Source: Planctomycetota bacterium
Lineage (GTDB): Bacteria; Planctomycetota; Brocadiia; Brocadiales; Scalinduaceae
NCBI GenBank assembly: GCA_022570935.1
Contig: JACZYU010000005.1
Location: forward strand, 4,891 to 36,890
Length of the DNA stretch: 32,000 bases
Reading direction: 5' to 3'
Shown: positions 1,809-15,633 of the stretch, one piece after another
Position numbering within the stretch: position 1 is the stretch's first letter
How the letters are laid out: each line of letters opens with the position of its first letter
Program-made: the position numbers and the translations under genes
The notes under the pieces: generated by a model
Told to the model about the DNA's origin: nothing
Database searches by the model: none
What the model saw: the letters and a program-made list of their open reading frames with translations, nothing else

Positions 1809-3512
1809 CTAACTACCCGACATAATTACGTCTGATTCTATTCCTTCCGGGGAGCCTTTGATGTTTCTTCTGAAAAGTGCCTGCATTCCACTGGAGGCCT
1901 TGGTGGATAATCTGGAACCAAAATCCTCATAGATAATAATACCTTCAACATCCGGCAGTTTTTCAATGAGTTCCATACCCTTCTCCAGCCCCAGGACAAA
2001 TACTCCTGTGGAAAGTGCGTCTGCCCTGATCGCATTGCCTGCAACTATTGTCACACTAACGATGCCCTTAACGGGGTTGCCGGTCCTTGGATCGATTATG
2101 TGTGAATACCGCTCGCCATCAATAGTAAAGAATTTTTCGTAGTCACCGGAAGTAGATACGGCTTTATCTCTAATCTCAAATGAACCAAGGAGCCCCTCGC
2201 TCTTGCGTGGGTGTTGCAGACCTATAACCCATGAATCTTTCCCCGGAGGCGCTCCATACGCATAAATATTTCCAGCGAAGTTTATGAGTGCAGAATTTAT
2301 TCCGTTTCCTTTAAGTACCCTGGTTGCCATGTCAACAGCATAACCCTTTCCAATCCCGCCCAGATCAATCTGCGTACCGGAATTCCTGAAGTATATAGTC
2401 TTTACAATACTCGGGTCACGGAAGAGTGACTTTTTAACTCTTTCTTCAATAATAATGTTTTTATAAGAAACTGATTCAAGCGCTGATTTCAGTTCTTCTT
2501 TACCTGGAATTCTTCCCTGCTCCTTGAAAAATCCCCACTTTTTCATGAGAGGGCCTATTGTAATATCAAAGGCGCCATCAGTAATATCACTATACTGTAA
2601 AGATTGTTCTATTACGTAAGCAAGCTCGTTGTCACAGATGGTTGGTTCCGATGCGGCATTTTTATTAACTTTCGACAGCTCGCTCTCCTCTTTATAATTG
2701 CTCATCAGGTAATCAAGCCTGTTAATCTCTTTGAATACGTCATTGAATGCTTTTTCAGCTTTATATTTGCCTGCAACATAGGCGGAGACCTCAAAGAGTG
2801 TTCCCATGCTCAATGCCGCCTTTTTGAATAGTGTTAATTCCTGCTCCCGGCCTTCATCGCTAAACTTCACCCTTTCCATGGAAGCAATATTATCTGTCCT
2901 TTTACCGCTTAAGTAGAATTGATCAATGACGGTAAGCACCTTCTTCACTCCCGTACACATAGTAACAACAGACATGGTAGCCCCTGTTATATTAATGATG
3001 TCCTTATTGATTCTTAGAGGGTTCTTAAGGGTCTTGCCCTTAAATTGGTAAAGGAACCTCTTCTTTGCAATCTCAGCGCCCCTGCTTTCACGGTAAACGA
3101 GTATGGCTATCTCCCTGATCTTACCCTTCGGACTCACAGATACTATGAATGTATAAGGATGGAACTTGCCAACCTCCTCGGTAATTATTGCATATCCCGT
3201 AACCTTGCCGGATTTAATGCCTATGTATGTGATAAAACTGTTTTCATATATCTTCCGCTTTAGTCTGTTCTGAAGCACTGTCTTGCTCTCATCAGTAAGG
3301 ATTATCTTGTCATACACTATCTCATCACAGTCCGGAAGCACCTTCAGCAATGCCTGTTCTTCCGTCAGGAAAACATGGGGTTGATAATTCTCCACCGGTT
3401 CTAGCTCAAAGCCCGCCTGTGCATGGCACGTAGAAGTAATTGCAAACACCAACGCCGGTATCAATAAATAAACGTTTACTCTTCTCATTTTCAATAAACC
3501 TAACCTAGACAA
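1809..3512 (-). CDS. Secreted FMN_bind-domain + ApbE flavin-transferase fusion protein (paralog 1, catalytic motifs intact)
   Basis: 567-aa ORF. The likely true start is ATG 3488 (MRRVNVYLLIPALVFAITSTCHA signal peptide); TTG 3512 abuts a repeat module. The N-half carries the RnfG/NqrC/NosR-type flavinylation motif INITGATMS (TGAT codons 2976-2987). The C-half carries ApbE signatures MGT, IDLGGIGKGYAVD, STSGDYEK and SHIIDPRTGNP (2073-2102). Confidence 0.8.
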   Translation of the reverse strand: MSRLGLLKMRRVNVYLLIPALVFAITSTCHAQAGFELEPVENYQPHVFLTEEQALLKVLPDCDEIVYDKIILTDESKTVLQNRLKRKIYENSFITYIGIKSGKVTGYAIITEEVGKFHPYTFIVSVSPKGKIREIAILVYRESRGAEIAKKRFLYQFKGKTLKNPLRINKDIINITGATMSVVTMCTGVKKVLTVIDQFYLSGKRTDNIASMERVKFSDEGREQELTLFKKAALSMGTLFEVSAYVAGKYKAEKAFNDVFKEINRLDYLMSNYKEESELSKVNKNAASEPTICDNELAYVIEQSLQYSDITDGAFDITIGPLMKKWGFFKEQGRIPGKEELKSALESVSYKNIIIEERVKKSLFRDPSIVKTIYFRNSGTQIDLGGIGKGYAVDMATRVLKGNGINSALINFAGNIYAYGAPPGKDSWVIGLQHPRKSEGLLGSFEIRDKAVSTSGDYEKFFTIDGERYSHIIDPRTGNPVKGIVSVTIVAGNAIRADALSTGVFVLGLEKGMELIEKLPDVEGIIIYEDFGSRLSTKASSGMQALFRRNIKGSPEGIESDVIMSGS

Positions 3513-4734: not shown

Positions 4735-5714
4735 TTATCCTGCTGCCTTTTCAAGATTGGATTTTGATGATTCTACGATTATCTCTAAGATGTTTTTTAA
4801 GGAATTATCCTGTGGGTATAAACGTAATGCCTCTTTGATCAATTGAGCGGATTCTTCGCTCCTTCCTTCTTCTAAAAGCATAACAATCAAGTTGTAAAAA
4901 ATGGAGGCGCCTTTTTGGCCCAGGTTTATGGCAATCCTGTATTCATCTACCGCTTTTGCTTTTTCACCTGTTTCTATATACAAATTTGCAAGCGCTATAT
5001 GTGTAGACGCTTGTTTTGGTTCTATCTCAATGGCCTTTTCATATTCCCTCAGGGCTTCGTCCGGTTTAAGTTCCTCAACATAAATACTTCCCAGTAGTAA
5101 ATGAGCTTTAGCATAATCAGGTTTCTTATCTATCGCTTTTTGTAATGTTTCCTGTGCGGAAAGATTTTCTCCTCCCATGTAATAGGCATTACCGAGCCGA
5201 TAGAGATCCTCTGCTGAAACATCTTGTGAGGATGCTATATAACCCTGATAAAACAAGGCAGCCTCTCTGTGCATATTATTATTTAAATATAAATCCGCTA
5301 TGCTCCGTTTGAGCTCTGCACTCCCAACACCCAGCCGTTGCGCAGTTTCAAAGGCATCTATGGCATTATTGTATTCTCCTTTATCCAGATACAGATTACC
5401 AATATCAATAAGAGTTTCTGTCGCACCAGGCCATACCTGCAAGATATAACCATATACTGCAAGCGCATCTTCAAGTTTGCCATAATTACGTAATGTTGAG
5501 GCCAACTGCAGATTTGCTTCCTTCGATAGTGGAGCTAGTGTAACTGCATTTCTGTAGGCGCATAAGGCTCCTTCGCTATTACCCAGGCTTTCGAGACAAA
5601 TGCCGATTGAAATAAAAAGGCCGCTATCAAGTTCCGGAGGTTTGGATATCTTTTGAAACGCCTGTAACGCATTTCTATAGTCCTTATCTGGCAAATACGT
5701 GGCGTGTTTCATGA
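4735..5714 (-). pseudogene. TPR-repeat protein, C-terminal part of a gene split by an IS insertion
   Basis: ORF-track entry 4735..5724 begins with VYDVM, which is encoded by the IS terminal repeat. Host sequence starts at KHATYLPDKDY. The remainder consists of multiple TPR units (for example AYRNAVTLAP, AIDAFETAQRLG, ALREYEKAIEIEP). Confidence 0.8.
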
Positions 5715-7101
5715 CATCGTACACACTTTTTGTTTCACGAGATCGTACACAGATTGTATATTTCCATAAGGGAGGATATACAATGGATAAAAAAAAGTAA
5801 AACAGTTAATGAAGAAATTAATTTACGAGAACTTTGTATTAAGCTATACAATGAAGGTAAAAAACCAACAGAAATCTCCAGGAGCTTACGTCGTACACGA
5901 AATTGGGTCTATAAATGGATAAAACGATATAAGTCAGGAGATCCAAAATGGTATTTAGATGAATCCAAGGAACCAAAGAAGAAGCCGACAAAGGTCGATC
6001 AAGAACTAGAGAACAACATTGTTGATATCCGAAAAAAGTTAGTAAAACGTGACACTCCAGAAACACGATACGCTTTTCATGGAGCAGTCGCAATTCATCA
6101 AGAATTAGATAAATCAGGATATAAAGACAAGCCTAATTTATCAACGATTAACCGTATTATTAAACGAAACGGATTAATTGTAAAAGAGCAAAGGAAAACA
6201 GGTAATAAAGAATCAAAAGTATATTATCCCGGTATATGTACCAGATATCCAGGGCACGTTTACCAACTTGATTTAGTAACACCAAGGTATATTACTGGAT
6301 ATGGGCGAATAGTTTCAGTAAACCGTATTGACGTTTATTCGGCAAAAGCAAACTTAAACCAATACCAATCCAAAGGAGCAGACAGTATTATTAGCTTTGC
6401 CATAGAAGATTGGAGTGAACATGGTATACCACATTACTTGCAATTAGACAATGAAGCGGCTTTTCGTGGTAGCCTGTATCATCCCAGGACATTTGGCAAA
6501 CTGACACGTTTTTGCTTAAACTTTGGTGTAGAATTAATTTTTATTCCATTCAAAGAGCCTTGGCGTAACGGTTATATTGAAAGTTTTAACAGTCGATTCA
6601 ATGAAAACCTCTGGCTCTTTCAGAAATTTACAGATTTAGAGCATTTAAGAAACGAAGCAAAACTATTTAAAGATAAATATAACAACTTTCAAACTTATAA
6701 GAAAAAACACTTTAGCAAACAGTACTTATTTGGATACACAACACGCTATTTCCCAAAGGGATTCAAATTTGATCTTTCAACAGAGTTACCTATTACTAAT
6801 GGTAAAATCCATTTTATAAGACTTGTTAATGAAAAAGGCTATATTAATGTCTTTAATGAAAATTTTTACATTAACAAAGATTTTAGTTTTGAATACGTAT
6901 GGGCAACTATTTTTACTAAAGAACAATTGTTAAGATTCTATTACCAAGCAACAAAAGATTCTAAAGAAGAATTGATAAAAACTGTTGCTTATAAACTCAG
7001 GGAGACTGTAAAAAACAGAATGCCTGTTAAAAAGTTTTGCTAAAGTGTGTACGATGTCATGACACAGCTAGTAGCACTAAGAAGTGTGTACGATGTCATG
7101 A
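5709..7101 (+). mobile_element. Insertion sequence with an rve-type DDE transposase (IS481/IS3-superfamily-like), including flanking TCATGA copies
   Basis: Left end TCATGA-CATCGTACACACT (5709-5727) is the inverted complement of right end AGTGTGTACGATG-TCATGA (7083-7101). The palindromic hexamer TCATGA sits at both junctions (5709-5714 and 7096-7101). Subterminal copies of the end sequence lie at 5735-5752 and 7044-7062. The element carries a single transposase ORF. Confidence 0.85.
5730..7043 (+). CDS. DDE (rve/integrase-core) transposase with an N-terminal HTH
   Basis: 437-aa ORF. The HTH-like segment is KPTEISRSLRRTRNWVYKWIKRY. The candidate catalytic triad lies in YQLDLVTP, LQLDNEAAFRG and PWRNGYIESFN. 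The SD-preceded ATG at 5783 is one nucleotide out of frame across an A8 run (5789-5796), so the true start and intactness are uncertain. Confidence 0.8.
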   Translation: MFHEIVHRLYISIREDIQWIKKSKTVNEEINLRELCIKLYNEGKKPTEISRSLRRTRNWVYKWIKRYKSGDPKWYLDESKEPKKKPTKVDQELENNIVDIRKKLVKRDTPETRYAFHGAVAIHQELDKSGYKDKPNLSTINRIIKRNGLIVKEQRKTGNKESKVYYPGICTRYPGHVYQLDLVTPRYITGYGRIVSVNRIDVYSAKANLNQYQSKGADSIISFAIEDWSEHGIPHYLQLDNEAAFRGSLYHPRTFGKLTRFCLNFGVELIFIPFKEPWRNGYIESFNSRFNENLWLFQKFTDLEHLRNEAKLFKDKYNNFQTYKKKHFSKQYLFGYTTRYFPKGFKFDLSTELPITNGKIHFIRLVNEKGYINVFNENFYINKDFSFEYVWATIFTKEQLLRFYYQATKDSKEELIKTVAYKLRETVKNRMPVKKFC

Positions 7102-7522
7102 AACTTGGCAAATACGCACTACCCAGGTATCGCACCGGTTTCAGGTTTTCGGGTTCGATATCTAAAGCCTTGGCATATGCCCCAATTGCGTCATCTACCC
7201 TGTCTTGCATCATCATATAAACATGCCCCAGGTTAATATAGATACCTGCAGTTTCTTTCTTCGCTAACGCAGACACATAAGCAGATTCAGCATCAGACAA
7301 TCTATTTCCCCTATACGCTTCATCCCCTTTCCTGACGAGTTCAGAGTAACTGCCTTTCATTTTAGTCTGGTTTTGATAAGTCTCTGCTATGACTACAGAG
7401 TGATATTGTAAAATCACAATAAATAGTAAAAATAACAATCTGATCATCCGGCAGCTTTTTTCAGCCGCTAAGACCAAAAGGCACAAAATTTCCTGTTTCT
7501 TGTCCATAAATTTCCCATCCAA
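7096..7522 (-). pseudogene. TPR-repeat protein, N-terminal part of the IS-split gene
   Basis: ORF-track entry 7040..7522 ends in MTSYTLLSATSCVMTSYTL, which is encoded by IS sequence. The host part ends ...PVRYLGSAYLPSF. It contains a signal-like segment MIRLLFLLFIVILQYHSVVIA (alternative ATG 7447) and TPR-like units. Confidence 0.75.
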
Positions 7523-10474: not shown

Positions 10475-10813
10475 CTAGCGTGAGTTCCTGCAAAATAGAA
10501 ATATTCCTGAAACTGTTAAAGACACAAGGCTGAACCCCAGTATGCACAGCAAAATTCTCTTTAAATTAAAAAAATTAAAATCATGTAATTTAACTACAAA
10601 ATGTCCAAATCTGCGCCGGTTATCCAGTTCTTCAACGACATCTCCGCTATATTTGTCAACGAATATCTCGGTGTTGTGTTTTTTCCAAAATATTTTTAAT
10701 ACAGTGTAAGAACGCTATAATGCATGCGGCACAACTTCTTCAAAAACAACTTGTATATGGCCTCTTGCAGAATGTACACATCTGACAATATCTTCCACGG
10801 AGTAATTATTCAT
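10475..10813 (-). pseudogene. Small PepSY-like domain + C-terminal TM protein interrupted by an in-frame TAG
   Basis: ATG 10813 gives MNNYSVEDIVRCVHSARGHIQVVFEEVVPHAL, then TAG (10715-10717), then the same frame continues RSYTVLKIFWKKHNTEIFVDKYSGDVVEELDNRRRFGHFVVKLHDFNFFNLKRILLCILGFSLVSLTVSGIFLF... to TAG 10475-10477. The pattern ...Y.V......E..VD..SG.V plus an LH motif plus a TM helix is PepSY-like. It is not in the ORF track because both pieces fall below the cutoff or lack a start. Confidence 0.5.
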
Positions 10814-10828
10814 TTTTCAGAGACAAAC

Positions 10829-11278
10829 TTACACAATTATTGCAGTAGCCCTTGATTTCAAACGTATGTGTTTTATATTGAAACCTTTTTTTCTGCAGAT
10901 ATCATTTACAATCTTTTCTGTTTCTCTGTGCTTTATTTCAATAATGTTCTTACACTTTAAGCATACTACATGGCCAATATTATATTGTTCTACTATTTCA
11001 TAAACGTAATGATCCGGGGCGATATCAGTTTTCTTTACTATTCTGTAATCTTCCAGCAATTTTATTGTCCGGTAAAGGGTGCTTTTTGATATGCGGTCCC
11101 TTTTTGCCTGTAAATTGTTATATAATCTGTCAATTGAGAAGTGCTTAATCGTCCTTGAGGTCTCCAGGATTTCCTTCAGGATATGCTGCCTTTCATAAGT
11201 ATAATTTAAACCCTTTGCCCTGAGAAACTCCCTGAACAAGGCTTCTTTGATAAGGTCATTGTCTTTCCGTGGTGACAT
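10829..11278 (-). CDS. Fur-family transcriptional regulator, atypical (metal ligands largely missing)
   Basis: 149-aa ORF with a winged-helix region (ISKSTLYRTIKLLEDYRIVKK) and a dimerisation region typical of Fur. The HHDH-x2-CxxC region reads NIGHVVCLKC, and there is no C-terminal CxxC. Confidence 0.7.
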   Translation of the reverse strand: MSPRKDNDLIKEALFREFLRAKGLNYTYERQHILKEILETSRTIKHFSIDRLYNNLQAKRDRISKSTLYRTIKLLEDYRIVKKTDIAPDHYVYEIVEQYNIGHVVCLKCKNIIEIKHRETEKIVNDICRKKGFNIKHIRLKSRATAIIV

Positions 11279-11562: not shown

Positions 11563-13245
11563 CTAGAATGCACATGCCTGCCTTACTCTTTGCCGTGATA
11601 TCGGTTCAGCCTTTTGTTCAAAATAAGTTTTTATGCCATTTGATATCTCAACTTCTATACTACCATCGGATCTTTCATAAAGGTCGATCCCCTCAGCATC
11701 AGGTATATTATTGATAAATCCCATATCCTTATTCAAGCCTGACAGGTGAGCGGCGGCGGCGAGGGCATCGGCTTTAAATGCGGTAGGAGCGACTACAACT
11801 GCCTCAAGCAAATTGACGTCAAAAGGTCTTTGCAGATTTGAGTCGGTAATATGGGAATATTTCTTTCTGTTATTTATAAGCATTTTCTCGTAATTTCCTG
11901 AGATTGCGACGGCACCGTTGTTTAAATGGACAAATCCTATGCTTTTCCCCTTATCTTTAGGGTCTGGTATTGCTATTCTCCAGGCAGTATCGCCAGGCGG
12001 GTGTCCTATAACCCTTATAGCGCCTCCAAAGTTAACCAGGGCATGTGATATGCTATGATTTTCCAATACTCTGATAACACTATCTACCACATATCCTTTA
12101 ACTAACAGTGAAATGTCAAGTTTAGTCTGCTCATCTTTGAAAAAGATGGTACCTCCGCCATTCTTGTCTATACCAAGGACTATGTTTTTATAGGTAGAAG
12201 CATTGCGTAAGGACACTATGTCTTCAGATTCACTAAATTTCTTTTTATTCCTGTTTAATGTGTCAGCCAACGAACCTTCTGTTATGTCAAACCCTCCGTT
12301 TGTTATCTTACTATAATGGAGAGAGAATTTGACAATATCGAAAAGTTCTTTGTCGCATGTAATTGGTTTTTTCCATGCCTTTTTATTTATTTTGGATATT
12401 TTGCTATTCTTCCGATCTCTATTAAGTATTTTGTTCAGACGATCAATCTCTTTAAACGCCTCTTTAAAGGCAAGTGATGCATTCTTCTCCGTTGTGCCTG
12501 TTATCAATATGTCTATAATATCACCCATAGAGGGATATGCTTGTGAAAAGATTTTTTGCGTCTCTTCTTCCCCTGCCTGATTCCCTATCCGGCTATAAGG
12601 TGTTGGGCTGATTTCCCGATTCCCCTGTAGATAAAATTCATCCAGGACGGCGCGCATCTTTCTTACGCCACGATTCACACCCCTTACAGACGTAGTGGCG
12701 CCGGTGATATTTATTATGTCTTTATTGATTCGTATAGGATTATTCAGGGACTTGCCTTTGTACTGGTGGAGAAATCTCTTCCTTATAACATCCTTGCCTC
12801 TGCTTTCCCTGTAAATCATTACTGCTACTTGTTCTATCTTCCCATCTGGTTTCATGCTCATAATAAAGGTTATCGGATGAAAGCAGCCCATCTCGTCTGT
12901 TATGATGGCATACTTCTTTATACTCCCATTCTTTTTGCCTGTGAATACAACGAAGGCATCTTCATCAATCCGGGCCTTTAGTCTGTTTTCCAACCTCTGT
13001 TTCTCATCTTGAGTAAGCACAAGGCGATCCACCAAAACCTCGTCACATCCTTTGAAAACGGACGCAATAGCCTCCTCTTCCTCAAGGAATACCTGCATTT
13101 CATAATTATCAGAAGGCTCTACATCATCTATAGTGATTTTCTGCCCTATTATGTAGTCGTACTGTGGGAATGCAACTCTTTGATAAAAGGCTATAACCAG
13201 GATTAAGAAAGGCAAGAAGAGAGAAGTAATAATGCTTAGCTTCAT
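11563..13245 (-). CDS. Secreted FMN_bind-domain + ApbE-like fusion protein (paralog 2, ApbE motifs degenerate)
   Basis: 560-aa ORF colinear with 1809..3512. The FMN_bind motif INITGATTS is retained (TGAT codons 12694-12705). The ApbE signatures diverge: MGD for MGT, LDISLLVKGYVVD for IDLGGIGKGYAVD, AISGNYEK for STSGDYEK, and SHITDSNLQRP (11824-11853) for SHIIDPRTGNP. Confidence 0.75.
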   Translation of the reverse strand: MKLSIITSLFLPFLILVIAFYQRVAFPQYDYIIGQKITIDDVEPSDNYEMQVFLEEEEAIASVFKGCDEVLVDRLVLTQDEKQRLENRLKARIDEDAFVVFTGKKNGSIKKYAIITDEMGCFHPITFIMSMKPDGKIEQVAVMIYRESRGKDVIRKRFLHQYKGKSLNNPIRINKDIINITGATTSVRGVNRGVRKMRAVLDEFYLQGNREISPTPYSRIGNQAGEEETQKIFSQAYPSMGDIIDILITGTTEKNASLAFKEAFKEIDRLNKILNRDRKNSKISKINKKAWKKPITCDKELFDIVKFSLHYSKITNGGFDITEGSLADTLNRNKKKFSESEDIVSLRNASTYKNIVLGIDKNGGGTIFFKDEQTKLDISLLVKGYVVDSVIRVLENHSISHALVNFGGAIRVIGHPPGDTAWRIAIPDPKDKGKSIGFVHLNNGAVAISGNYEKMLINNRKKYSHITDSNLQRPFDVNLLEAVVVAPTAFKADALAAAAHLSGLNKDMGFINNIPDAEGIDLYERSDGSIEVEISNGIKTYFEQKAEPISRQRVRQACAF

Positions 13246-13268
13246 GTAGTAATATCCTGAAAAAAAAG

Positions 13269-13395
13269 TGACTAAAGTGAACTAAAGTGTAAAGTGCCTA
13301 AAGTTAGGAAAAAGGTGGAAATCATTAATTTTTAAATAATACATATTCATTTTCCCCCAACTTTAGTCACTTTAGTTCACTTCACACTTTAGGCA
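13269..13395. repeat. Symmetric array of four 7-10-nt units and their unit-wise reverse complements around an AT-rich spacer
   Basis: Left arm: TGACTAAAG, TGAACTAAAG, TGTAAAG, TGCCTAAAG (13269-13303). Right arm: CTTTAGTCA, CTTTAGTTCA, CTTCACA, CTTTAGGCA (13361-13395). The array lies between the TlpA-like gene and the start of paralog 2, with an A8 run at 13260-13267. Confidence 0.8.
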
Positions 13396-13465
13396 CTTCA
13401 AGCCTGGCTTCGGCGTGAACTCAGCCGAACGGTAGCAGCTATGCAGCGCTGTGTTTTTTGGTTAA

Positions 13466-13981
13466 CTATTTGGCGCTCAAAAGTTTTTCTATTATTTGTG
13501 AAAGTTCATCCTCGCCCACCAAACCGACGTGATTCTGCACAAGATTACGATTCCTGTCGTAAATATGTGTTGTCGGGATTGAACGGATATTATAGTGGAA
13601 ACCGACATCTTCATTGCCCAGATAGACTGGATATTTAATTTCTGTTTTGCCAATAAATTTCTGTAATTTTTCTTTGTCAAAGTCAAAAGAAATGCCGATT
13701 ATTGACAACCCCTTAGATTTATATTTTTTATATATATTTGATAAGACAGGGGCTTGTTTCGTACAAGGCGCACAAAAAGTAGCCCAGAAATCCACGATTA
13801 GAACTTCGCTCTTTGAATTTGTTATTTCATTTTCCAGAAAACCGGCATCAACAGTTTCTATAGTGTTTGCATATAAAGAGTATTCTTGAAATACGGAGGA
13901 TAGACAAAAAGCTGCTATCGGTGTCAATATTAAGAATCTCAGGTATAGATTCTTAATAAGAGAATCAAAAAAATGTATCAT
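13466..13981 (-). CDS. TlpA/ResA-like periplasmic thiol:disulfide oxidoreductase (thioredoxin fold)
   Basis: 171-aa ORF with an N-terminal membrane anchor or signal, the thioredoxin active site WATFCAPC, and the downstream cis-Pro region IRSIPTTHIY. Confidence 0.8.
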   Translation of the reverse strand: MIHFFDSLIKNLYLRFLILTPIAAFCLSSVFQEYSLYANTIETVDAGFLENEITNSKSEVLIVDFWATFCAPCTKQAPVLSNIYKKYKSKGLSIIGISFDFDKEKLQKFIGKTEIKYPVYLGNEDVGFHYNIRSIPTTHIYDRNRNLVQNHVGLVGEDELSQIIEKLLSAK

Positions 13982-14193: not shown

Positions 14194-15633
14194 TTAAAAA
14201 TATGTTGCAACTGAAAATAACAACACGTTATTACTTACCTCAGGAGTTGTTACACGACCAGCCTCCCAATTAATCTGATATTCGGCCTTAAAAACGGTAT
14301 CTTCGGTATACCTGAAGTTAAATCCGGGCGTTAAACGAGTCCTTCTTCTATCACCCGCATTTGGTAGTGGTTGATTTACATTAAGTTCTCCCCATCTTAC
14401 TACGGCCGTAAAAGTAGAGTCATCCGTAAAGAAGGTTGGCGCAAGGTCCTTAAAGGTCTGCGGCATAAAGTGGTATCTTGGTTCTATATAATATCCCCAC
14501 ATATCTCCATTATATAGAGCGCTATTTTCAGTGTCATTGTCAAAAGCCCCTTCTCTTTCTATTGATGCATGCGCATATTCTCCAACCAGTTCAAAAGGGC
14601 CTTTCTGATAAGTCCAGTCAAAAGCCTTAATTGTCAGCCTGTTACTATCATGGTCATCTATATATCCCGTATGTACGGAAACACCTAATTCAAGACCAAG
14701 AAAAGGGCTAAACGCTACACGTCCAACAATTGCCGGGTTGCTATTGTTGTCCGACTTTTGACTTCCCCTTGCACTTCTTATAAAGCTGTCTCCGGCACCT
14801 ACAACTCCACTATCATCTGCAGCCGAAAAACCATTTACCGCATAGATTTCGTAGTCAAGTTTTGACATTTCCGTGGGGTAAAATGTACCAAAGAAACCCA
14901 TTCCTGCTTCGCTGAGGGTTGTAGGTATAATCCTTCTATTTACCATTGGCCTGGCTGTCAGGTCCTGGAGGGGCGAATCGTGGACAAGGTTAAACTTACC
15001 GAGAGGGCTCAATATTATGCCTGCACGGTAATTGATCCAATCAGTTATAAGGAAATCTATTGTTGCAAATTCAATCTTTATCTCGCCTTTACTACCTTGA
15101 ATACCACCTGTGGTTTGAGGTCCTCCATCCTCAATCTCCAACTCCATTGCAAACTTTACCCTATCAGACACATCGGAGTAAATAAACGGGATAAGCCTGT
15201 GCTGACGAAAGAAATTTTCACCATTTTCTGTAAATTGAAGCTCCATGTCCATATATCCGCCTAAATAGGTATTTCTGCCAAACCTGCGTAAAAATGGCTT
15301 TCCATATTGTCTACCAAATACCGGCGCAAGGCCTTTGTCACTAAGCTCCTGGGCTTTTTTAGCCCAGTAAAATTCCTCTCCAGGGAGAAGACCTTTTACA
15401 TCGTCCCTCAGGGACTCAAGTTCCTTAGTGGTTTCTGCCTGTTGTTCGAGTTGTCCTTTCAACTCCATAAGCATTTTCTCCATAGCCGCCACCTTTGCCC
15501 TGAGATCCTCGCCAGCGGCTGATACATTCGAACATACAGTACCAAGAAAAAGGGCAGACAGGCACATAAACATAATAATATACTTCTTCATACATATACT
15601 CCTTTCAAAAAAAGTATTTAAAATTATAATCAT
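14194..15633 (-). CDS. Outer-membrane beta-barrel porin-like protein with an N-terminal coiled coil
   Basis: The likely start is ATG 15591 (MKKYIIMFMCLSALFLGTVCSNVSA signal peptide, GAAAGGAG upstream). A coiled coil (LRAKVAAMEKMLMELKGQLEQQ) is followed by alternating amphipathic beta-strand patterns and a C-terminal aromatic residue (...LLFSVATYF), typical of OM barrels. The resemblance to OprO/P-type porins is only a general impression. Confidence 0.6.
   Translation of the reverse strand: MIIILNTFFERSICMKKYIIMFMCLSALFLGTVCSNVSAAGEDLRAKVAAMEKMLMELKGQLEQQAETTKELESLRDDVKGLLPGEEFYWAKKAQELSDKGLAPVFGRQYGKPFLRRFGRNTYLGGYMDMELQFTENGENFFRQHRLIPFIYSDVSDRVKFAMELEIEDGGPQTTGGIQGSKGEIKIEFATIDFLITDWINYRAGIILSPLGKFNLVHDSPLQDLTARPMVNRRIIPTTLSEAGMGFFGTFYPTEMSKLDYEIYAVNGFSAADDSGVVGAGDSFIRSARGSQKSDNNSNPAIVGRVAFSPFLGLELGVSVHTGYIDDHDSNRLTIKAFDWTYQKGPFELVGEYAHASIEREGAFDNDTENSALYNGDMWGYYIEPRYHFMPQTFKDLAPTFFTDDSTFTAVVRWGELNVNQPLPNAGDRRRTRLTPGFNFRYTEDTVFKAEYQINWEAGRVTTPEVSNNVLLFSVATYF

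Follow-up and report, generated by a model that had tools for sequence, protein, structure and literature searches.

The 32,000-nucleotide stretch of DNA analyzed here (the window; contig JACZYU010000005.1, positions 4,891 to 36,890, of assembly GCA_022570935.1, from a Planctomycetota bacterium of the family Scalinduaceae) contains two genes encoding proteins in which a flavin mononucleotide (FMN)-binding domain is fused to a domain of the flavin transferase family ApbE. This report concerns the second of these genes, paralog 2 (protein P0001, a member of what we call clade B), and its relation to the first, paralog 1 (protein P0002, a member of clade A). The genes and the features of paralog 2 considered first are as follows, with coordinates given as window positions.

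11563..13245, reverse strand: paralog 2, 560 amino acids, with an N-terminal hydrophobic anchor or signal, an FMN_bind half, a degenerate ApbE-like half, and a C-terminal C-A-F
12601..13128, reverse strand: RnfG/NqrC-like FMN-binding half of paralog 2 (residues ~40-215), from the Pfam FMN_bind match and alignment to RnfG (7zc6_G)
12694..12705, reverse strand: acceptor core T181-G-A-T184 in K-D-I-I-N-I-T-G-A-T, in which T184 is the predicted FMN attachment residue
11611..12540, reverse strand: ApbE-like half of paralog 2 (residues ~236-545), from the Pfam ApbE match; fold retained, catalytic set degenerate
11824..11853, reverse strand: H465-I-T-D-S-N-L-Q-R-P474, formerly H-I-I-D-P-x-T-G-x-P, within a region of low model confidence (residues 461-480)
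11755..11769, reverse strand: D493-A-L-A-A497, formerly D-A-L-S-T; the Mg-ligand Asp is retained and the Ser and Thr ligands are now A496 and A497
1809..3488, reverse strand: paralog 1, an intact FMN_bind-ApbE fusion; the likely start is the ATG of MRRVNV, and the listed open reading frame (ORF) opens with a TTG at 3512

The ORF at 11563-13245 on the reverse strand gives a stop-free translation of 560 amino acids, and Pfam recognizes both domains in the product (FMN_bind, 27.9 bits against a cut-off of 22, residues 124-196; ApbE, 194.8 bits against a cut-off of 25.6), as it does in paralog 1 (26.8 and 297.5 bits, respectively). When compared by BLASTP, the paralog 2 protein and the 1809-3512 product are colinear over 515 amino acids with 39% identity (E 4e-133). 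The preliminary description of this DNA had presented the gene as a colinear, 560-residue second FMN_bind-ApbE paralog, strongly similar to paralog 1 across the FMN_bind half; the first point is borne out by the translation, Pfam, and BLASTP, and the identity of YRESRG and RINKDIINITGAT in both proteins was confirmed. A phmmer comparison of paralog 2 with the PDB returned a match to FmnB (E 9e-32). An AlphaFold2 model built from 52 sequences has a predicted local distance difference test (pLDDT) score of 81.4 and a predicted template modeling (pTM) score of 0.73, with low confidence only near residues 331-345 and 461-480, which correspond to the lost WGF loop and HIIDPxTG turn, respectively. 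By Foldseek, this model has target-normalised TM-scores of 0.75-0.84 against all solved ApbE/Ftp structures, and its N-terminal half scores 0.5-0.6 against RnfG and NqrC. Both sequence and model place an N-terminal hydrophobic helix at residues 2-21. Paralog 2 is therefore a member of the ApbE family (PF02424) by fold and homology and of the FMN_bind family (PF04205) by domain and fold.

A search of 5.8 billion proteins was used to define the two clades: clade A contains the orthologs of paralog 1 (36-42% identity to P0001), and those of paralog 2, which come from Scalindua, Anammoxibacter, and other Brocadiales and show 46-89% identity, make up clade B. The closest protein relatives of paralog 2 bear Candidatus Scalindua and Brocadiales names. 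All residue counts below are for 84 clade A and 32 clade B proteins. In the host genome, a 2.5-Mb metagenome-assembled genome that is 82% complete, paralogs 1 and 2 are the only ApbE matches. Paralog 1 has the canonical residue at 14/14 scored catalytic, flavin adenine dinucleotide (FAD), and Mg positions, and it is the presumed flavin transferase of this pair.

The acceptor motif that the preliminary description had placed at 12694-12705 is at that location and is invariant in 116/116 aligned clade A and clade B fusion proteins. Across the N-terminal half as a whole, 40/62 of the positions that are invariant in clade A are retained in clade B. T184 aligns with the flavinylated Thr164 of Clostridium tetanomorphum RnfG, in an alignment that is weak (E 0.027). 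Paralog 2 contains the [S/T]-G-A-[S/T] acceptor with a preceding acidic residue, located 8 residues before the Thr as it is in the flavinylated RnfG; in this it differs from the minimal motif D-x-x-[ST]-G-A-[ST], where the acid is at -6. The host genome also encodes a third FMN_bind protein of the RnfG/NqrC type, which adjoins an RnfD-like gene on a separate contig. In the RnfG/NqrC-like protein L099 of this genome (G000:C74), the acceptor reads E-V-H-A-I-T-G-A-S; as in both paralogs, the acidic residue is found at -8 and the Asp at -6 is missing.

To place the catalytic residues, functional positions were taken from published work and mapped on alignments to 4ifu and 7esa. Listeria FmnB binds Mg1 through Asp301, Ser304, and the carbonyl of Ala187 and binds Mg2 through Asp301, which Asn216 stabilises; Ser257, His273, and Asp301 are the proposed triad, the isoalloxazine is sandwiched by Met49 and Phe142, and the ribose is held by Asp128 and Asp184 (PMC8906456). 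In the Treponema enzyme Ftp (Ftp_Tp), D284 and T288 are first-sphere metal ligands, the D284A and T288A substitutions abolish activity, and N55, whose counterpart is Tyr60 in Escherichia coli and Tyr78 in Salmonella, stacks on the flavin (PMC4436053). On the alignments, S240, E244, and R245 fall at S-G-x-Y-E-R, H256 at H-I-I-D-P, and D284 and T288 at D-A-L-A-T. The preliminary description had assigned metal binding to the D and T of DPxTG; the alignments contradict this, as the ligands are the D and T of the later D-A-L-[SA]-T motif, 28 residues past the His and outside DPxTG. Because the DPxTG Asp is Asn in 30/84 intact paralogs, it is not an essential ligand.

Alignment to the characterised ApbE/Ftp proteins, which the preliminary description had proposed as a check, thus removed DPxTG as the metal site and, at the same time, revealed that the true Mg-ligand Thr, the stacking residues, and the Gly-rich Mg loop are lost from paralog 2. 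The substitutions quoted earlier (SGNY, SMGD, and DISLLVKG for SGDY, SMGT, and DLGGIGKG) are all found where they had been reported, and the most important changes are further ones: DALST has become DALAA, GGN has become GGA, WGF is lost, and the stacking Tyr is D277. The D-L-G-[GA]-I-[GA]-K-G loop, which contains the Mg-binding carbonyl (A162 in Ftp_Tp, Ala187 in FmnB) and a Lys, reads D-I-S-L-L-V-K-G in paralog 2. Judged as an active transferase, paralog 2 is deficient in its first-sphere Mg ligands, its carbonyl loop, and its isoalloxazine-binding residues.

The same positions are altered throughout clade B. The Mg-ligand Thr (T288 in Ftp_Tp), present in all 84 clade A proteins, is Ala in 22, Ser in 9, and Val in 1 of the clade B proteins, and the Ser304 position, Ser in 84/84 of clade A, is Ala in 21, Ser in 10, and Thr in 1. 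The stacking Tyr (84/84 in clade A) is replaced by Asp (11), Glu (10), Lys (5), and other residues, and no clade B protein has Tyr; Phe142 (84/84) is deleted in 32/32; and the Trp of WGF (84/84) is found in 0/32, with WGF deleted or replaced in every case. At the Gly186 position (Gly in 84/84 of clade A), clade B has Ser (29) or Thr (3); at Lys190 (Lys in 84/84), Asn (19) or Lys (13); and at Asn216 (Asn in 84/84), Asn in 11 and otherwise Ala, Thr, or Val. The catalytic His (H257 in Vc, H256 in Tp, His273 in FmnB) is present in 84/84 clade A and 17/32 clade B proteins. The third position of SGDY varies in clade B (Asp 19, Asn 6, Glu 5, Lys 1, Gly 1), and SGNY is limited to the closest relatives of paralog 2. 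Mostly retained are Asp128 (30/32), Asp184 (32/32), Ser257 (27/32), Glu261 (31/32), and Asp301 (28/32), together with the Met49 equivalent in 21/32, and the Glu of FDIT-E is a new invariant residue (32/32). Overall, just 27/80 of the positions of the ApbE half that are invariant in clade A are retained in clade B. The earlier report of an intact paralog alongside was confirmed, with the motifs kept by the 84 paralog 1 orthologs and lost by the 32 paralog 2 orthologs, a difference that does not arise by chance. This clade-wide pattern says that what selection preserves is not catalysis. The ApbE domain of the degenerate lineage is almost certainly dead.

Selection on the gene, which the preliminary description had also proposed to examine, was assessed as the ratio of nonsynonymous to synonymous substitution rates (dN/dS) by the Nei-Gojobori method, using only pairs with dS below ~0.6; the distant pairs (G064, G067), with saturated dS, were dropped. 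The ApbE-like half of paralog 2 gave dN/dS values of 0.16-0.22 at dS 0.34-0.57, which is purifying selection, and paralog 1 gave 0.14-0.17 in the same genome pairs. The clade B orthologs keep a full-length frame (549-602 amino acids) down to 46% identity, with no stops or frameshifts in 32, and 16 of the 31 positions that are at least 90% conserved and specific to clade B lie in the ApbE-like half. The 32 orthologs therefore combine the three marks of a pseudoenzyme, namely loss of essential residues, purifying selection, and conservation across species. Because the dN/dS of its ApbE-like half is this low, paralog 2 is predicted to be a maintained pseudo-transferase. The preliminary description had suggested a pseudo-enzyme that serves as an acceptor or scaffold or has a changed activity; its conclusion, a non-catalytic or altered ApbE-like domain with an intact acceptor, stands, and its reason, the DPxTG motif, does not. 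The role of acceptor or scaffold fits the present results, which add the conserved thioredoxin partner and the new cysteines described below.

The origin of the degenerate proteins was analyzed with a tree of ApbE halves (built quickly and containing long branches; ApbEs from elsewhere in Planctomycetota, 27 in number, formed the outgroup). The Brocadiales fusion proteins form one group with a support of 100. Clade B (support 99, stem 0.76) and a second degenerate clade from Brocadiaceae, clade C (support 100, stem 1.16), are each recovered, the long L046 branch (G001) falls inside the Brocadiales fusion group, and the order of the groups is not resolved. When clades B and C were constrained together, the approximately unbiased (AU) test did not reject the grouping (p value of 0.645) and the likelihood was higher than that of the unconstrained tree, with long-branch attraction a possibility. 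Clade C is degenerate at other sites: Gly or Ala replaces Asp301, the stacking Tyr is deleted, and there is no longer a Ser257, Glu261, Asn216, or Met49; the His and Thr305 are retained. Clades B and C occupy equivalent genomic positions. The simplest account is that the fusion gene was duplicated once, long ago, in Brocadiales and that the constraint on catalysis was relaxed afterwards.

A fusion gene is present in 86/92 Brocadiales genomes and clade B in 10/92, the latter being 5/20 genomes of the same genus, 3 elsewhere in the family, and 2/2 of the sister family; a canonical clade A or stand-alone ApbE is also present in 10/10 of them. FMN_bind-ApbE fusions are common, as a profile search of 1.84 billion cluster representatives found ~95 further 50%-identity clusters among the best 150 matches. 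In those clusters, 9-14 of the 14 catalytic, FAD, and Mg positions that were scored are retained, P0173 (7/14) being the sole exception, and the six representatives of the degenerate lineages keep 5-8 (clade B), 5 (clade C), or 1-4 (L046-like). The L046 locus (G001:C105) represents a third, extremely degenerate fusion lineage (proteins P0126 and P0128). The sister family has stand-alone canonical ApbE proteins, L047 (G001:C81) and L048 (G002:C26), of 390 and 375 amino acids, which nest inside clade A beside Scalinduaceae fusions, as if the FMN_bind half had been lost.

Two cysteines set the degenerate lineages apart from the intact paralogs, and a thioredoxin gene is the conserved neighbour of clades B and C.

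12883..12885, reverse strand: Cys121 in G-C-F-H-P, a feature of the degenerate lineages alone; Lys in 84/84 intact paralogs
11572..11574, reverse strand: Cys558 in the C-terminal C-A-F, likewise a feature of the degenerate lineages alone
13466..13981, reverse strand: TlpA-like thioredoxin, predicted to be exported, 171 amino acids (Pfam Thioredoxin_8, AhpC-TSA, and Redoxin), with C70-A-P-C73 at 13763-13774

The C-terminal Cys is present in 31/32 clade B proteins and 0/84 clade A proteins. Clades B and C have in common a Cys121-type cysteine and one located 2-5 residues from the C-terminus (0/84 in clade A), the latter within C-A-F in clade B and G-C-[SP]-F-S-P in clade C, and in the L046-like proteins the Cys121 loop reads D-C-x-x-C-F-R-P and the chain ends in C-x-C. 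Cys121 aligns (weakly, E 0.027) with Tyr93 in the 91-94 loop of C. tetanomorphum RnfG, which is one of three loops fixing the exposed FMN. Other cysteines follow different patterns. A Cys that is invariant in clade A (C186 of P0002), 7 residues past the acceptor Thr, is Asn in clade B and Cys in clade C. Two more, Cys62 and Cys293 in P0002 (Cys67 and Cys297 in P0001), are common to clades A and B and almost as well conserved in clade C; this pair may form an inter-domain disulfide.

A thioredoxin-like gene lies directly upstream of clade B in 7/7 loci examined and directly downstream of clade C in 4/5 loci, with the fifth 4.6 kb away; in every case, the neighbouring thioredoxin has a signal-like N-terminus and one CxxC. 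A best-hit test does not support orthology of the thioredoxin partners of the two clades: the best Brocadia homolog of the window thioredoxin is encoded elsewhere (in G025, beside clade A).

Two further genes flank this pair in the window.

14194..15633, reverse strand: porin-like protein of 479 amino acids, with a signal peptide, a C-terminal Phe, and no Pfam match
10829..11278, reverse strand: Fur-family regulator, downstream of paralog 2, an adjacency common only to G068

The porin-like gene is a conserved upstream neighbour in G068, G067, and G064 and not in G083, G001, or G002, that is, in Scalinduaceae only. A Fur/TonB iron-uptake role, suggested by the genes downstream of paralog 2 in the window, was rejected as the conserved link, as Fur is adjacent only in the host genome (G000) and G068 and TonB genes are found in no other locus. 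In Brocadiaceae, the gene order is HMA_2, P-type ATPase, clade C, thioredoxin, cytochrome-fused encapsulin, and NIR-HAO. In G083, G064, and G067, the order is thioredoxin, clade B, inositol-phosphate synthase, NIR-HAO, encapsulin, multicopper-oxidase-like, and DtxR, and in G083 the gaps among the first three genes are 4 and 30 nucleotides. In G068, it is thioredoxin, clade B, HMA_2, Fur, HMA_2, DtxR/FeoA, and P-type ATPase. When encapsulin and a clade B or C gene are on one contig, they are separated by 1-6 kb in 13 genomes, the exception being a truncated copy in G023, and the encapsulin, NIR-HAO, P-type ATPase, and HMA_2 genes are all within 1-6 kb in those 13. The extended encapsulin/NIR-HAO neighbourhood was observed at L059, L060, L062, and L063 (Brocadiaceae) and at L054, L055, and L056 (Scalinduaceae), with HMA_2, a P-type ATPase, a degenerate FMN_bind-ApbE-like protein, a CxxC thioredoxin, a multicopper-oxidase-like protein, and a DtxR-type regulator as its content.

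Based on the above results, we propose, with a probability of roughly 0.7, that paralog 2 is a dead ApbE-like acceptor that is flavinylated in trans and acts with the thioredoxin as a flavin-thiol electron relay. Its ApbE-derived half would keep the fold and be unable to hold Mg2+-FAD productively, and paralog 1, as the only canonical ApbE of the genome, would attach FMN to T184 in trans. Paralog 2 and the TlpA-like CxxC thioredoxin would then form an extracytoplasmic electron carrier, in which electrons would pass between the covalent flavin, Cys121 in the loop that holds the flavin, the C-terminal Cys558, and the CxxC of the thioredoxin. The ancestral module would have stood beside the encapsulin/NIR-HAO operon of anaerobic ammonium-oxidizing (anammox) bacteria and a P-type ATPase with HMA_2 proteins, and in the host genome, where no encapsulin genes were found, it stands alone beside the Fur gene. 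Because of this ancestral neighbourhood, a role in redox support of a metal or haem centre is plausible, and the neighbouring genes suggest copper, iron, or haem centres as the target of the relay. A more specific proposal is that the lineage is an undescribed family of ApbE-derived pseudo-enzymes, combining a covalent flavin, a new pair of cysteines, and a dedicated exported thioredoxin into a thioredoxin-reductase-like relay outside the cytoplasm, which ancestrally served the encapsulin, NIR-HAO, and P-type ATPase genes as an accessory through which copper, haem, or cysteine sites in the shell or its cargo stay reduced; we offer this only tentatively and think it could well be wrong. The papers that we searched make no mention of ApbE, flavin, or thioredoxin beside encapsulin genes, and the extended neighbourhood is absent from the encapsulin papers that were consulted.

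Several observations weigh against the proposed relay. The sister relation of clades B and C depends on a quick, unresolved tree with long branches, the thioredoxins beside the two clades are not reciprocal best hits, and the RnfG alignment that places Cys121 is weak. Paralog 2 keeps Ser449, Glu453, His465, and Asp493, which include the proposed FmnB triad, and residual or altered activity is therefore compatible with its sequence. In addition, encapsulin was not found in the host genome (82% complete) or in G068, G078, G080, G001, and G002, and the Kuenenia-like G049 has an encapsulin with no such module nearby. Taking all of these loci together, the encapsulin link is ancestral and frequent, not obligatory, and the module persists here without encapsulin.

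The retained residues of clade B can also be read as those of a ligand-binding site. If so, the ApbE-like half would be a non-catalytic binder of an adenine nucleotide, unhydrolysed FAD, or a metal, its task would be to regulate or load the flavin domain, and the thiol chemistry would be incidental. The adenosine and ribose contacts at Asp128 and Asp184 are kept almost throughout clade B and the flavin-side residues are lost, the FDIT strand has its new invariant Glu, the neighbouring genes are concerned with metal handling, and there is a precedent in Ftp_Tp, where the single substitution N55Y converts the enzyme to an FAD binder (PMC4436053). However, such a binder leaves unexplained both the two lineage-specific cysteines and the constant CxxC thioredoxin neighbour, and since clade C has lost Ser257 and Glu261 and keeps others, there is no common pocket signature. 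We consider this account unlikely.

The retained catalytic residues, in turn, are what one would look for if paralog 2 were still enzymatically active, as a flavin transferase or an FAD pyrophosphatase whose metal site has been remodelled and whose substrate range differs. S449, H465, and D493 are all present in paralog 2 itself, with Glu453, Asp320, and Asp377, the ApbE-like domain is under purifying selection, and a review of ApbE proteins notes that conservation in their FAD pocket extends to few residues beyond the Ser-His-Asp set. Against an active enzyme, T288A alone kills the pyrophosphatase of Ftp_Tp and the equivalent Thr is found in 0/32 orthologs, the His is lost in 15/32 orthologs under similar constraint and the Asp in some, every isoalloxazine-stacking residue is gone, and the G-[GA] of the Mg-carbonyl loop has become S-L. 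Clade C has lost a different subset that includes the Mg-ligand Asp, which is the pattern expected when catalysis is no longer selected. Continued activity of this kind is, in our judgment, decidedly improbable.

That the ApbE-like half is being lost by decay, which would leave the FMN_bind half as the only part of importance, is scarcely credible: the few clade A-invariant positions left in that half and the cut-down Brocadiaceae copies (an internal deletion in G040, an N-terminal fragment only in G054) would fit decay, but the dN/dS near that of the intact paralog, the unbroken frames of all 32 full-length orthologs, the 16 clade-B-specific positions within it, and the confident fold prediction speak for a domain that is kept.

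The proposed flavin-thiol relay was compared with known systems. Paralog 2 has the fold of the ApbE/Ftp/FmnB enzymes (PF02424; 4IFU, 7ESA, 6NXI, 4XGV) and is predicted to be exported, as they are, and it keeps the equivalents of Asp128, Asp184, Ser257, Glu261, His273, and Asp301. Unlike these enzymes, it has neither the Mg-ligand Thr nor the Ser, and the G-[GA] loop, Asn216, the three stacking residues (Tyr, Phe, and Trp), and the MGT Thr are missing as well; its DPxTG turn is scrambled, its orthologs lose the His too, and it is predicted to be inactive. The glycosomal fumarate reductase of Trypanosoma brucei has an N-terminal ApbE domain in one chain with the domain that is flavinylated, which sets a precedent for such a fusion, and paralog 1 probably works in the same way on its own chain. 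In the trypanosome enzyme, the fused ApbE domain is active, whereas that of paralog 2 is degenerate and would rely on another transferase. With RnfG and NqrC, paralog 2 shares the fold of its N-terminal half and, where the C-terminal helix begins, a [DE]-I-[IV]-x-I-T-G-A-T acceptor; it differs in lying outside an Rnf or Nqr operon, in its ApbE-like fusion, and in having Cys in place of the loop-1 Tyr of RnfG.

Two further described systems were compared by gene content. The hybrid clusters reported by Meheust et al. (2021) contain DsbD, DUF3570, thioredoxin-like, and DUF4266 proteins, the last with a C-terminal CXC (PMC8238504). They resemble the present module in combining a flavinylated extracytoplasmic protein, a thioredoxin-like protein, and a partner with C-terminal cysteines, and a link to metal assimilation was proposed for them (PMC8238504); they consist of other protein families, and here the cysteines are on the flavoprotein itself and there is no adjacent DsbD gene. 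In NosR/NosX, which support N2O reductase, a flavinylated FMN_bind protein and an ApbE-family protein are encoded beside a periplasmic copper enzyme of nitrogen metabolism, and the neighbours in relatives of the present locus include NIR-HAO and multicopper-oxidase-like genes, a parallel that is one of analogy only. Unlike the ApbE-like half of paralog 2, NosX is a separate, active transferase, and there is no NosR-type membrane or Fe-S part here. In two flavinylation surveys (PMC8238504; bioRxiv 10.1101/2024.03.13.584918) we found no mention of FMN_bind-ApbE fusions or dead ApbE domains, and in the literature outside subscription journals we found no paper that joins encapsulin and ApbE, or ApbE and pseudoenzyme.

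The ApbE and FMN_bind families are known; what is new is an ApbE-derived pseudo-enzyme lineage with its own signature. ApbE has been treated as a single-function family, and flavinylation surveys count each ApbE match as a transferase. In this conserved lineage, a predicted dead ApbE domain is still kept with its former substrate domain, and the name 'FAD:protein FMN transferase', under which its members appear in public annotation, is probably wrong for them. The lineage offers a handle on the supply of electrons to thiol and metal centres outside the anammox cytoplasm, as well as on what the anammox encapsulin system needs beyond its shell and cargo.

Other features were observed in the window. 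The 220-nucleotide spacer between the thioredoxin gene and paralog 2 (13246-13465) contains a long hairpin of CTAAAGTG-type units (-64.5 kcal/mol, z -4.9), followed by a run of eight U just ahead of the paralog 2 ribosome-binding site; the corresponding spacing in G083 is only 4 nucleotides. This hairpin may act as a terminator or attenuator, or it may have been inserted as a repeat element. An insertion sequence at 5706-7104, bounded by 26-nucleotide inverted ends (5706-5731 and 7079-7104, 96% complementary) and encoding a 437-amino acid transposase with HTH and rve_3 domains (5730-7043, forward strand), splits a TPR gene into 4735-5724 and 7040-7522. Finally, a small ORF with an in-frame TAG at 10475-10813 on the reverse strand resembles the HMA_2-domain gene located after Fur in G068 over its first 21 residues only (76% identity), with no similarity beyond them, and it is probably what remains of that metal-binding gene.

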